From IMG/VR virus record IMGVR_UViG_3300044716_000844, positions 31,587-95,586 of that record: DNA of 64,000 bases; one strand, 5' to 3'. How positions within the stretch are numbered: the stretch's first letter is position 1; every line of letters begins with the position of its first letter. Shown here piece after piece: positions 49,247 to 52,756 of the stretch. A program made the position numbers and the translations under genes. The stretch is from a virus. The notes beneath the pieces were generated by a model. It was not told where the DNA came from, did not search any database, and saw nothing but the letters and a program-made list of their open reading frames with translations.

Positions 49247-49514
49247 AACAATAAAAGACTTTGACGATGACTTTGGGTTTTCTATGGTTGACACTGAAGA
49301 GATCCTGAGTTATAATCAACCTGAGATTAACACTCTTTCGGCTGAGAACGAAGACCTTCGTCTTAGACTCGAAAAGATGTACAAAGCTATTGATAAACTG
49401 CTTACAAATCTGTCAAAAAATCCAGAACAAGAATTAATTAAATGGCCGAACAGACTTGAGCGAATCGCAGAGTTTCGTATCAAGCTGGAACGCATTCGTA
49501 AAGGAGAAGAATAA
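49239..49514 (+). CDS. Conserved small protein upstream of uvsX (probable TTG start)
   Basis: DDFGFS, LL.NL.KNPE...IKWPNR; GGAG before TTG. Confidence 0.6.
   Translation: MPKTIKDFDDDFGFSMVDTEEILSYNQPEINTLSAENEDLRLRLEKMYKAIDKLLTNLSKNPEQELIKWPNRLERIAEFRIKLERIRKGEE
49288..49316 (+). promoter_or_regulatory. Perfect sigma70 promoter for uvsX (intragenic)
   Basis: TTGACA-N17-TATAAT. Confidence 0.8.
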
Positions 49515-50590
49515 TGTCGTTAATGGATAAATTGCTCAAGGCATCTACGGTCAAGATGACCGCGCCATTGCTCGATTCAAAGGTGTTTGGTAAGAAAGAA
49601 ATGGTGCCAACGCAAGTTCCTATGGTGAACGTTGCACTATCTGGCAGTGTTGACGGTGGGCTTTTGCCGGGTCTCACAATGCTTGCAGGGCCTTCGAAAC
49701 ACTTTAAGTCAGCCTTTGCATTGCTTATGGCTGCAGCATATCAAAAGAAGTATGATGACGCAATCATTCTCTTCTATGACTCAGAATTTGGTACTCCTCA
49801 AGCGTACTTTGAAGCGTTTGGTGTTGACATGGCGCGAGTCATTCATACTCCTATCACGAATATTGAAGAGCTGAAGTTCGATATTGTTCAGCAGCTTGAA
49901 GCTATCGAGAAGAAAGATCACGTCATTATCGTTATCGACTCGATTGGTAACCTTGCATCGAAGAAAGAAGTCGATGATGCTGCTGATGGTAAATCGGTTG
50001 CAGACATGTCTCGGGCAAAGCAGTTGAAGTCGGTCTTCCGTATCGTCACTCCTCACTTGAACCTGAAAGACATTCCAATGGTTGTGGTCAACCACATCTA
50101 CATGGAACAAGGTCTGTATCCGAAGGCAATCGTCTCGGGTGGTACTGGTATCTACCTGTCGGCTGACAATATCTGGATTCTTGGTCGTCAGCAAGAAAAA
50201 GAAGGCACTGAGATCAAGGGCTATCACTTCGTGATTAACATCGAGAAGTCTCGTCACGTTCGTGAGAAGTCAAAGATTCCGATCACTGTTACCTTTGATG
50301 GTGGTATTGCTAAATGGTCTGGTTTGATGGAAGTCGCTGAAGAAGGCGGGTTCTTGCGTAAACCAAAAGTTGGTTGGTATGAAGCAGTCGATCCTGAAAG
50401 CGGTGAAGTACTCTCGGATAAATTGCTTCGTGCAAAAGAGATTGCTGACAACGGTGTATTCTGGAAAATGATGTTTGACAAAACTGGATTTGCAGAGTAT
50501 ATTAAGAACAAATACACTGTTGCAACTCGTACTCTTATTAACGATGACGAGGCACACGTTGATATTGACGACGAAGATCTTGAAGACTGA
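49514..50590 (+). CDS. uvsX: RecA-like recombinase UvsX
   Basis: LAGPSKHFKS, FYDSEFG, IDSIGNLASKKE, DMSRAK. Confidence 0.96.
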   Translation: MSLMDKLLKASTVKMTAPLLDSKVFGKKEMVPTQVPMVNVALSGSVDGGLLPGLTMLAGPSKHFKSAFALLMAAAYQKKYDDAIILFYDSEFGTPQAYFEAFGVDMARVIHTPITNIEELKFDIVQQLEAIEKKDHVIIVIDSIGNLASKKEVDDAADGKSVADMSRAKQLKSVFRIVTPHLNLKDIPMVVVNHIYMEQGLYPKAIVSGGTGIYLSADNIWILGRQQEKEGTEIKGYHFVINIEKSRHVREKSKIPITVTFDGGIAKWSGLMEVAEEGGFLRKPKVGWYEAVDPESGEVLSDKLLRAKEIADNGVFWKMMFDKTGFAEYIKNKYTVATRTLINDDEAHVDIDDEDLED

Positions 50591-50647: not shown

Positions 50648-52090
50648 ATGATCGAACAAACAATCTTAGCAGGTATGATTCATAATGAAGGTTATGTAAG
50701 AACGGTCTTGCCTTTCCTGAAAGACGAGTACTTCGAGGATCAAAACGAAAAGTTTATTTACACTACGATTAAGTCGTACATCGATCAATACAACGGATTG
50801 CCTACTCTTTCGGCTTTGAAGATTGCAATCGATGCATCGAATTCATTGAATGAAGAACGGTACAAACAAGTCAATACAACTCTTGATTCGTTGACTTACG
50901 ACGAAAAGACTGACATGACTTGGTTGGTTGATACGACCGAAAAGTTCTGTCAAGACAAAGCGATCTATAACGCAGTTCGTCAATCAATCCTTGTTCTCGA
51001 TGGTAAGATTAAAGATCTTGATAAGGGTGCAATCCCAGAACTATTGAGTGATGCTCTCGGTGTAAGCTTTGATACAAATGTTGGTCATGACTTCCTTGAA
51101 AATGCAGATGAGCGCTTTGACTTCTATCATCGAGTAGAAGAGAAGCTTGAGTTTGATCTTGAGTACTTCAACAAGATCACAAAGGGTGGCCTAAGTAAAA
51201 AGTCTCTGTCGGTTGCTCTTGCAGGCACTGGTGTTGGTAAGACTTTGTTCATGACTCATTGCGCTGCAGCATCTCTATCTGCTGGTAAGAACGTTCTCTA
51301 CATCACCATGGAAATGGCTGAAGAACGAATCGCCGAACGTATCGATTCAAATCTTCTTGATGTAACTCTTGACGATCTTCGTCTGCTTCCAAAGCCTATC
51401 TACAACTCGAAGATTGAAAAGATAAAGGCGAGAACAGTAGGCAAACTTATCGTGAAGGAATACCCTACGAGTTCTGCAGGTGCAAATCACTTTCGTCACC
51501 TGTTGAATGAATTGAAGCTAAAGAAAAACTTTGTGCCCGATGTTATCTTCATCGATTACTTAAACATCTGTATGAGTGCTCGGTTGAAACATGGTGCTAA
51601 CATGAACTCGTATATGATGATTAAAGCGATTGCAGAAGAGCTTCGTGGTCTTGCAATGGAGTTCAACGTTCCAGTTATGACTGCTACTCAGACCACTCGT
51701 TCTGGTTATGGTAACTCTGATGTCGAGTTAACCGATACATCAGAATCGTTCGGTCTACCTGCAACTGCCGACTTCATGTTTGCACTTATTTCGACAGAAG
51801 ATCATGAGAGCCGTGGTCAGCTTCTCGTCAAACAGCTGAAGAACCGTTGGGGTAGTGTTGATAGCCCTAAACGATTCGTTGTCGGTATCGACCGCTCAAA
51901 GATGCGCCTGTTTGATGTCGAAGAGTCTGCTCAAGAAGGTATCACTGGTGGGCCAAAACAACAAGATCGACCTATATTTGATGGTTCTTCTATGGTGCAA
52001 GACTCAGACTTTCAGCCAGATCATGACTTTGAACCGCAGCGACTAAGCAGCTTTAAGAAAAAGAAACCGAATTTTGGAGGGTTTAACTGA
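50648..52090 (+). CDS. gp41: Replicative helicase gp41
   Basis: AGTGVGKT, ITMEMAEERI, IDYLNIC, TATQT.R, SESFGLPATAD, KQLKNR. Confidence 0.96.
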   Translation: MIEQTILAGMIHNEGYVRTVLPFLKDEYFEDQNEKFIYTTIKSYIDQYNGLPTLSALKIAIDASNSLNEERYKQVNTTLDSLTYDEKTDMTWLVDTTEKFCQDKAIYNAVRQSILVLDGKIKDLDKGAIPELLSDALGVSFDTNVGHDFLENADERFDFYHRVEEKLEFDLEYFNKITKGGLSKKSLSVALAGTGVGKTLFMTHCAAASLSAGKNVLYITMEMAEERIAERIDSNLLDVTLDDLRLLPKPIYNSKIEKIKARTVGKLIVKEYPTSSAGANHFRHLLNELKLKKNFVPDVIFIDYLNICMSARLKHGANMNSYMMIKAIAEELRGLAMEFNVPVMTATQTTRSGYGNSDVELTDTSESFGLPATADFMFALISTEDHESRGQLLVKQLKNRWGSVDSPKRFVVGIDRSKMRLFDVEESAQEGITGGPKQQDRPIFDGSSMVQDSDFQPDHDFEPQRLSSFKKKKPNFGGFN

Positions 52091-52299
52091 TGGGCTACCG
52101 CGTAAATGAAAACAACAACTCGTTTGAGATCGTTGAAAAAGGATCCGAATTGATTGTAGCTCGTAGAAATGATAAGGATGCAGCAACGAAACTTTGTCGT
52201 TCGTTGAACTTAGGTTCTGGGTTCGATGGATTCACTCCACCGTTCTTTACACTCAAGTATCCAGATGATCATGCAAAAGGAAATACCGCTCAAACTTAA
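52090..52299 (+). CDS. Small conserved hypothetical protein (69 aa)
   Basis: TGATG coupling; LNLGSGFDGFTPPFF. Confidence 0.65.
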   Translation: MGYRVNENNNSFEIVEKGSELIVARRNDKDAATKLCRSLNLGSGFDGFTPPFFTLKYPDDHAKGNTAQT

Positions 52300-52313
52300 T
52301 TGAGCGGTATTTC
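52275..52313 (-). terminator. 14 bp perfect hairpin; U-tract on the minus strand
   Basis: GAAATACCGCTCAA-N6-TTGAGCGGTATTTC, with AAAA at 52275-52278 on +. Confidence 0.7.
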
Positions 52314-52445
52314 ACCGTGCACGATACGTGAATGTTGGGCGGAACCCCACCGGCATTCTTGATGCGACCCCAACTGTTCCATCTGTGATTTTGTATGCTA
52401 TCACACTTGCCTCTACGTTAATTAACGTGATTACACGCACCCATA
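52275..52445 (-). ncRNA. Candidate structured non-coding RNA (late, antisense orientation)
   Basis: Minus-strand TATAAATA at 52450-52457, terminator at the other end, several helices and a pseudoknot, no meaningful ORF. Confidence 0.55.
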
Positions 52446-52449
52446 CGAT

Positions 52450-52457
52450 TATTTATA
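52450..52457 (-). promoter_or_regulatory. Late promoter TATAAATA on the minus strand
   Basis: + strand TATTTATA. Confidence 0.65.
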
Positions 52458-52477
52458 CAAAAAGTGTGCTCGGGCTA

Positions 52478-52505
52478 TTGACATTACTAAAAAAATGTTT
52501 ATATT
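52478..52505 (+). promoter_or_regulatory. Early sigma70-type promoter
   Basis: TTGACA-N16-TATATT. Confidence 0.6.
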
Positions 52506-52537
52506 ACTACTATAAGCAGAGCAAAGGTAGAACAACC

Positions 52538-52756
52538 ATGATGACCTTCGAACAGACCGGAACCGTCTTCACCGCCACCAACTCGATTAAGCCGGTGATT
52601 ATCAACAAGAACCATGCCAACCAATACATGCTCTTCACCCCCGAAGGTCGTCTGCTTGACAACTTCACCTCGGCCGGCCCTTTCGTAGACTTCGAAACAG
52701 CCAAACGTAATGCAGAATGCAACGTTGGTATGGCAATGAACTGGAGTGACTTCTAA
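52538..52756 (+). CDS. Hypothetical early protein (72 aa; start revised from 52328)
   Basis: Promoter and AAAGGT RBS precede ATG 52538. Confidence 0.65.
   Translation: MMTFEQTGTVFTATNSIKPVIINKNHANQYMLFTPEGRLLDNFTSAGPFVDFETAKRNAECNVGMAMNWSDF

Follow-up and report, generated by a model that had tools for sequence, protein, structure and literature searches.

A conserved candidate RNA gene with a four-way-junction fold and a predicted late promoter beside gp41 in uncultured T4-like phages

T4-like myoviruses are among the most abundant marine viruses, and numerous comparisons of their replication module exist. Phage T4 has two small stable RNAs, rnaC and rnaD, which lie in the tRNA cluster and are processed from it, and the pRNA of phage phi29, which is transcribed early, is a component of that phage's packaging motor. 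Several structured RNAs of T4-like cyanophages (manA, wcaG, PhotoRC-II and the glutamine-riboswitch RNAs) are contained in Rfam and occupy the 5' UTRs of predicted target genes (PMC2864571; PMC9602691). Orphan motifs found only in marine samples, including Ocean-V and Ocean-VI, have been described (Weinberg et al., 2010; PMC2864571), and a screen of the intergenic regions of IMG/VR 3.0 gave 8,495 unnamed DNAVirus_X candidates (Fremin et al., 2023; PMC10690425).

The candidate RNA gene presented here lies in a 64,000-nucleotide stretch (the window) of a 95.6-kb IMG/VR viral contig (IMGVR_UViG_3300044716_000844) from an uncultured T4-like phage. Like rnaC, rnaD and pRNA, it would give a small structured non-coding RNA as a separate product of a lytic tailed phage; unlike them, it has its own predicted late promoter and terminator and is located beside gp41, and no sequence or structure similarity to them was detected. 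It shares with manA, wcaG, PhotoRC-II and the glutamine riboswitch the character of a structured RNA of marine T4-like phages, but it forms an autonomous unit, has no downstream gene in the subfamily to which the window RNA belongs (subfamily 1) and is absent from cyanophage S-SSM5. As with the orphan phage and metagenome motifs (PMC2864571; PMC10690425), the family is defined from sequence only, through covariation, and comes mostly from uncultured aquatic sources. The gene and its surroundings comprise the following features.

49514-50590, plus strand: uvsX
50648-52090, plus strand: gp41-type replicative helicase (Pfam DnaB_C, PHROG 19)
52090-52299, plus strand: 69-aa ORF (orf69), between gp41 and the RNA gene and convergent with the latter
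52275-52313, minus strand: intrinsic terminator, with a perfect 14-bp stem (52313-52280), a 6-nt loop and then CUUUU (CUUUUG)
52323-52441, minus strand: conserved RNA core, a four-way junction of helices P1-P4 in which P4 carries P5 and P6
52450-52457, minus strand: perfect T4-type late promoter TATAAATA; the conserved core begins (GGGUGCG) 7 nt later
52478-52505, plus strand: strong sigma-70-type promoter (TTGACA, 16 nt, TATATT) for the 72-aa ORF, back-to-back with the late promoter of the RNA
52538 (ATG), plus strand: 72-aa ORF, beyond the 238-bp gap that follows the 69-aa ORF

The RNA gene sits in this 238-bp gap on the minus strand, opposite to gp41, the 69-aa ORF and the 72-aa ORF. A mechanical list of open reading frames includes a 142-codon plus-strand frame with a GTG start (52328-52756) that spans the RNA gene. 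The real start of the 72-aa ORF is predicted to be the ATG at 52538, preceded by a sigma-70 promoter and a ribosome-binding site of its own, and the frame from GTG 52328 would be a false N-terminal extension by which gene callers could mask the RNA gene. Some 20 bp separate the late promoter of the RNA from the -35 element of the early promoter that diverges from it (52450-52483), and TGTCAA, the reverse complement of TTGACA, is present at the same spot in many of the RNA homologues. The back-to-back placement of predicted late and early promoters implies an early-to-late switch of the direction of transcription at 52450-52483.

The 64-kb window contains 13 TATAAATA sites, 12 on the plus strand and one on the minus strand; the latter (52457-52450) is that of the RNA itself. 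The unit has the make-up of T4-type late transcription, with TATAAATA as the -10 element, no -35 element and few bases before the transcript start, which is predicted to lie near 52444 from the T4 rule of ~6 nt past the promoter box. At the other end, the hairpin described at the outset has the expected 14 pairs and a 6-nt loop (52313-52280) followed by CUUUU, and in the window the hairpin and U-run together constitute a rho-independent terminator with a short U-run (CUUUU). The predicted promoter and terminator delimit an RNA gene of ~170 nt, running from roughly 52444 to 52275 on the minus strand. The minus-strand AUG at the 5' end of the RNA opens only eight codons, as had been noted. Late expression is a prediction based on the promoter sequence. 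The convergent 69-aa ORF ends in a stop codon (52297-52299) that the terminator stem overlaps. Read on the plus strand, the hairpin has no U-run, and it is probably not an efficient plus-strand terminator for the gp41 operon.

Homologues were collected along several routes. Through gp41 alone, 80 loci were fetched whose gp41 proteins are 57-68% identical to that of the window; an nhmmer search of these with the gap sequence gave eight significant matches just 3' of gp41, with an invariant TATAAATA, conserved blocks and visibly covarying helices, and each with a different GC-rich hairpin and T-run on the strand of the RNA. A three-block sequence pattern matched at least 119 stretches in viral contigs and at least 120 in metagenome contigs (many of them from Tara Oceans), and the 69 distinct sequences of the window type among the matches listed make up subfamily 1 (MAFFT alignment A2). 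The covariance model R1 was built from A2; it scores the window core at 116.6 bits (E = 1e-24) and found nine further, weaker matches in the gp41-fetched loci, on the same strand as gp41, so that nhmmer and R1 together place the RNA 3' of gp41 in 17 of the 80 loci. A second pattern, designed for this co-directional type, matched about 120 stretches at least in viral contigs; the 91 distinct loci among the matches listed, all of which score with R1, constitute subfamily 2 (A4, a model-fitted alignment). Altogether, 160 distinct homologues (69 + 91) were collected from uncultured phage contigs among the matches listed. R1 detected no second copy of the RNA in the phage's own 95.6-kb contig.

The two subfamilies differ in orientation and keep the same place. 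Among the matches listed, the RNA of subfamily 1 is antisense to gp41, which adjoins it in 57 of 62 loci, and the RNA of subfamily 2 is co-directional with gp41 and 140-2200 nt 3' of it, with gp41 beside it in 80 of 80 informative loci. As read from these arrangements, the RNA gene has been inverted relative to gp41 at least once. Subfamily 2 mostly lacks helix P5. In subfamily 2 (L033:4598-4712 and 90 other loci), the P1 sequences are wholly unlike that of the window, while GGCA, GGAA and GGUGGGGUUCC are kept.

Both subfamilies retain the late promoter a few bases 5' and the terminator 3' of the RNA. In subfamily 1, a perfect TATAAATA precedes the RNA core by 4-9 nt in 63 of 67 homologues, and a hairpin with a T-run (four or more T) follows the RNA in 67 of 69, with stem sequences that are unrelated among loci. 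In the subfamily 2 loci inspected, a late-type box (TATAAATA, CTAAATA or ATAAATA) is found 5' of the RNA and the terminators are strong; after them there is often a further late promoter, which serves the next gene. A fixed position, a flipped orientation and a promoter and terminator that travel with the RNA suggest an autonomous gene and argue for a trans-acting product. The plus-strand gene next to the RNA differs among homologues. Taken modulo 3, the lengths of the homologues fall evenly into the three classes, with no three-base periodicity, which points to a non-coding element. The initial proposal of an autonomous minus-strand gene for a structured non-coding RNA, bounded by a predicted T4-type late promoter and a terminator of its own, is supported.

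Within the core, the following elements are recognized (all on the minus strand).

52441-52434 with 52330-52323, minus strand: P1, the closing helix (GGUGCGUG / CACGUAUC)
52428-52424 with 52419-52415, minus strand: P2 hairpin (ACGUU/AACGU)
52414-52406, minus strand: joint J2/3 (AGAGGCAAG), 9 nt, purine-rich
52405-52400 with 52389-52384, minus strand: P3 hairpin (UGUGAU/AUCACA), whose apical part varies in length
52383-52375, minus strand: joint J3/4 (GAUGGAACA), 9 nt, with GGAA invariant
52374-52369 with 52339-52334, minus strand: P4 (GUUGGG/CCCAAC), which encloses P5 and P6
52365-52362 with 52356-52353, minus strand: P5 (GCAU/AUGC)
52352-52350 with 52342-52340, minus strand: P6 (CGG/CCG), with the 7-nt loop UGGGGUU (52349-52343)

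Helices P1 to P5 and the joint AGAGGCAAG had been drawn from the window sequence, and all are present and kept in the homologues. The predicted P1-P6 fold with its four-way junction is supported by compensatory changes among homologues; a search for relatives 3' of gp41, suggested with the initial annotation as a check, found such changes in abundance. In A2 (n = 69), 92.0% of cells are paired, compared with 78.1% in shuffles and 27-53% when the partners are slid, and both partners are substituted in 21 of 31 pairs; in A4 (n = 91, model-fitted), 94.9% of cells are paired and 23 of 28 pairs show double changes. The inner helices are the most convincing, with compensatory changes in A2 at 6/6 pairs of P4, 4/4 of P5 and 3/3 of P6 and with 97.6-99.6% of cells paired. 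In P2, four of five pairs are compensatory in A2 (96% of cells paired), and the basal pairs of P3 are compensatory at three of five positions in A2 and at all five in A4. In subfamily 1, P1 shows nothing beyond GC/GU alternation; in subfamily 2, both partners vary at all eight of its pairs, with 97.5% pairing, as counted in the model-fitted alignment. The column pairs with the highest mutual information in the MAFFT alignment A2 are the proposed pairs, headed by those of P4, P5 and P6, and unguided RNAalifold recovers P2, P4, P5 and P6. The excess of G.U over A.C cells (120 versus 20) indicates that the RNA is read from the minus strand of the window. In these alignments, the comparative evidence is decisive in placing the predicted fold beyond chance. 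Folded as a single sequence, the core does no better than shuffles (z = -0.95), and the evidence for the fold is thus comparative, not thermodynamic; the whole unit has z = -3.7, largely owing to the terminator.

Invariance in the large alignments is partly imposed by the search patterns, and the 18 gp41-derived homologues, which are free of this effect, show no variation in GGCA (J2/3), GGAA (J3/4) or the P6 loop UGGGGUU; GGCA was seen in every homologue inspected in both subfamilies. Across phages with gp41 57-68% identical to that of the window, the helices vary in sequence and these three single-stranded elements do not. A search for additional tertiary pairs by mutual information gave only secondary-structure pairs and clade effects, invariant bases being unable to covary. 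A pairing of UGC with GCA put forward by RNAalifold (columns 7-9 with 43-45) was rejected: it is invariant in subfamily 1, and subfamily 2, in which P1 covaries at 8/8 pairs, does not preserve the 5' strand of the pairing.

One part of the original fold has to be given up. GGAAC and GUUCC had been proposed to pair across GUUGGG/CCCAAC to form a pseudoknot, but this pairing shows no compensatory change and is broken in 12-19 of the 69 sequences at three of its five positions. The CC of GUUCC covaries instead with CGG just upstream, giving the 3-bp hairpin P6, with 99.5% pairing and double changes at each of its three pairs; the P6 pairs rank among the top mutual-information pairs, and RNAalifold recovers them independently. 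The H-type pseudoknot is accordingly replaced by the covarying P6 with its invariant loop UGGGGUU. A residual 2-bp AA:UU contact between invariant bases of GGAAC and GUUCC may persist, covariation being blind to such bases.

Comparison with known RNAs gave no relative. Rfam 15 yielded no match at the gathering thresholds over the whole window, and relaxing the cut-off to E <= 10 added just two chance matches, each located on the terminator and orf69; on six homologous loci it returned only noise, in line with the initial inability to assign the RNA to a known family. ARAGORN found no tRNA or tmRNA gene in the window, and assignment to either class was rejected on structural grounds, the joints being 9 nt long and the 7-nt loop fitting neither the T-loop nor the anticodon-loop consensus. 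Short resemblances to RNase P, SRP, T-box and sarcin-ricin loop RNAs were likewise set aside, the order and context of the elements being different and Rfam giving no support. The sequences of Ocean-V and Ocean-VI (PMC2864571) are unrelated to the phage RNA, and the signature motifs of the family do not co-occur in any of the 200 files examined out of 438 in the supplement of Weinberg et al. (2010; PMC2864571). The text of Fremin et al. (2023; PMC10690425) contains no description of the RNA, which their catalogue may list under an unnamed DNAVirus number.

The family appears to be equally confined in its taxonomic range. Searches with blastn using three family members against 50,697 cultured-phage records gave nothing meaningful, and R1 had no match in the whole records of HTVC008M, Melnitz, DLP_6, phiM12 and S-SSM5; the nearest cultured gp41 proteins are at most 64% identical. 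In representative bacterial and archaeal genomes, nine matches to the strict pattern were found, approximately the number estimated by chance, and none scores with R1. As far as these data go, the predicted family belongs to uncultured aquatic T4-like phages. It is phage-only and, on the alignments and models used here, fits no described RNA class in the sources compared and is new as an RNA class.

Our best guess for the function is that of a trans-acting RNA that binds a conserved partner. The late phage machinery, in T4-type units an RNA polymerase modified by gp55, gp33 and gp45, would transcribe the gene from the T4-type late promoter, with the intrinsic terminator ending the transcript, as judged from the sequence of these elements. 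We infer that GGCA, GGAA and the UGGGGUU loop form the functional surface, and, late in infection, the RNA would bind in trans to a partner conserved to the same degree, which could be a protein or a universal RNA, for example of the translation apparatus; it would not regulate a neighbouring gene in cis. Helices that change freely around three invariant unpaired elements, in an autonomous unit with a late promoter, fit a trans-acting RNA with a fixed surface, and the restriction to phages together with the late timing implied by the promoter type suggests a specific conserved partner. Taken as a whole, the explanation as a stand-alone late four-way-junction RNA of ~170 nt acting in trans on a conserved partner is in our judgement likely to be correct. 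A more far-reaching idea, which we regard as a long shot, is that the RNA represents a new functional class in which GGCA, GGAA and UGGGGUU form a pocket that docks a universal cellular component (such as the 3' CCA end of tRNA) or a small molecule. This late-expressed RNA would let the phage act on translation, or on an abortive-infection defence, while virions are being assembled. UGG pairs with CCA in T-box and RNase P RNAs and in the ribosomal P-loop.

Other readings of the same features deserve consideration. With its conserved 7-nt hairpin loop, conserved single-stranded segments and a 3' terminator hairpin typical of bacterial sRNAs, the RNA could be a base-pairing regulator in which the UGGGGUU loop or the purine-rich joint serves as the seed for phage or host mRNAs late in infection. 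We consider this unlikely, because a seed that is invariant across phages with gp41 ~57-68% identical would need equally invariant mRNA targets and the elaborate, covarying four-way junction exceeds the needs of a seed carrier; moreover, the complement of the joint, CTTGCCTCT, occurs in the window only at the RNA gene itself, and AACCCCA occurs at chance frequency in the window, its two other plus-strand sites being inside coding sequence and not at gene starts. The purine-rich, invariant multi-helix junction also resembles a ligand pocket and the terminator follows within 5-20 nt of the core, as might be expected for a cis-acting riboswitch or attenuator in which the junction is the aptamer and the hairpin is the expression platform that gates late read-through (in subfamily 1 antisense into orf69 and gp41, in subfamily 2 into the late gene that follows). 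However, in subfamily 1 there is no downstream gene in the orientation of the RNA, which is not placed as a 5'-UTR aptamer would be, and in many subfamily 2 loci a separate TATAAATA for the next gene follows the terminator. The terminators are strong and share no sequence relationship, an informal look saw no conserved alternative pairing with the 3' strand of P1, and there is no match to a riboswitch in Rfam; this reading seems to us quite improbable.

Catalysis is less probable still. In its compact junction of several helices and its small number of strictly invariant unpaired nucleotides, the RNA is reminiscent of small ribozymes, but none of the small self-cleaving families (hammerhead, twister, twister-sister, pistol, hatchet, HDV-like and hairpin) gave an Rfam match at E <= 10, and no other known ribozyme family did so. 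Small self-cleaving ribozymes usually occur in repeated, rolling-circle or retroelement contexts, none of which is seen for this gene, and the pseudoknot behind the idea of a self-cleaving or otherwise catalytic RNA is not supported. The element might also not be an RNA gene at all, being instead a DNA-level element, such as a replication origin or a protein-binding site, or the 5' part of the plus-strand frame GTG 52328-52756. Its place beside replication genes never changes and a plus-strand frame of 142 codons is open across the region; the compensatory changes and the 120:20 ratio of G.U to A.C cells, however, are signals of a minus-strand RNA, indels do not come in multiples of three, a separate sigma-70 promoter, ribosome-binding site and ATG (52538) beyond the element serve the plus-strand gene, and this neighbour differs between homologues. 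We regard this last reading as already largely refuted and give it next to no credence.

The 69-aa ORF was considered as a possible partner. Its product contains a near-invariant motif, LNLGxGFDGxTPxFF, and 93 distinct family members were found in the fetched loci; the structural model has three strands and one helix (pLDDT 82). The protein has no fold match in the PDB at E <= 0.001, belongs to no Pfam or PHROG family and has no homologue in cultured phages. The ORF often adjoins the RNA in both subfamilies and is enriched beside it (odds ratio ~9): among 60 informative loci, ten contain both, five the RNA only, eight the ORF only and 37 neither. The five loci with the RNA and no ORF and the eight with the ORF and no RNA led us to reject orf69 as an obligatory protein partner; it is a frequent syntenic neighbour of the RNA and not a demonstrated partner.

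The RNA gene has stood unannotated beside the replication module in hundreds of contigs. With 160 sequences, two orientations, a perfect promoter in 63 of 67 subfamily 1 homologues and near-perfect covariation, it is one of the better-supported orphan RNAs, and the family could be submitted to Rfam as it stands; R1 or an equivalent model could be used to annotate the gene in viromes. Identifying the partner of the RNA could uncover a step of late phage development or of counter-defence that relies on RNA. In two close relatives of the window RNA (L169:2415-2548 and L181:982-1114), GATAAATA or AATAAATA stands in place of TATAAATA, and we read these as natural variants of the late-promoter box.
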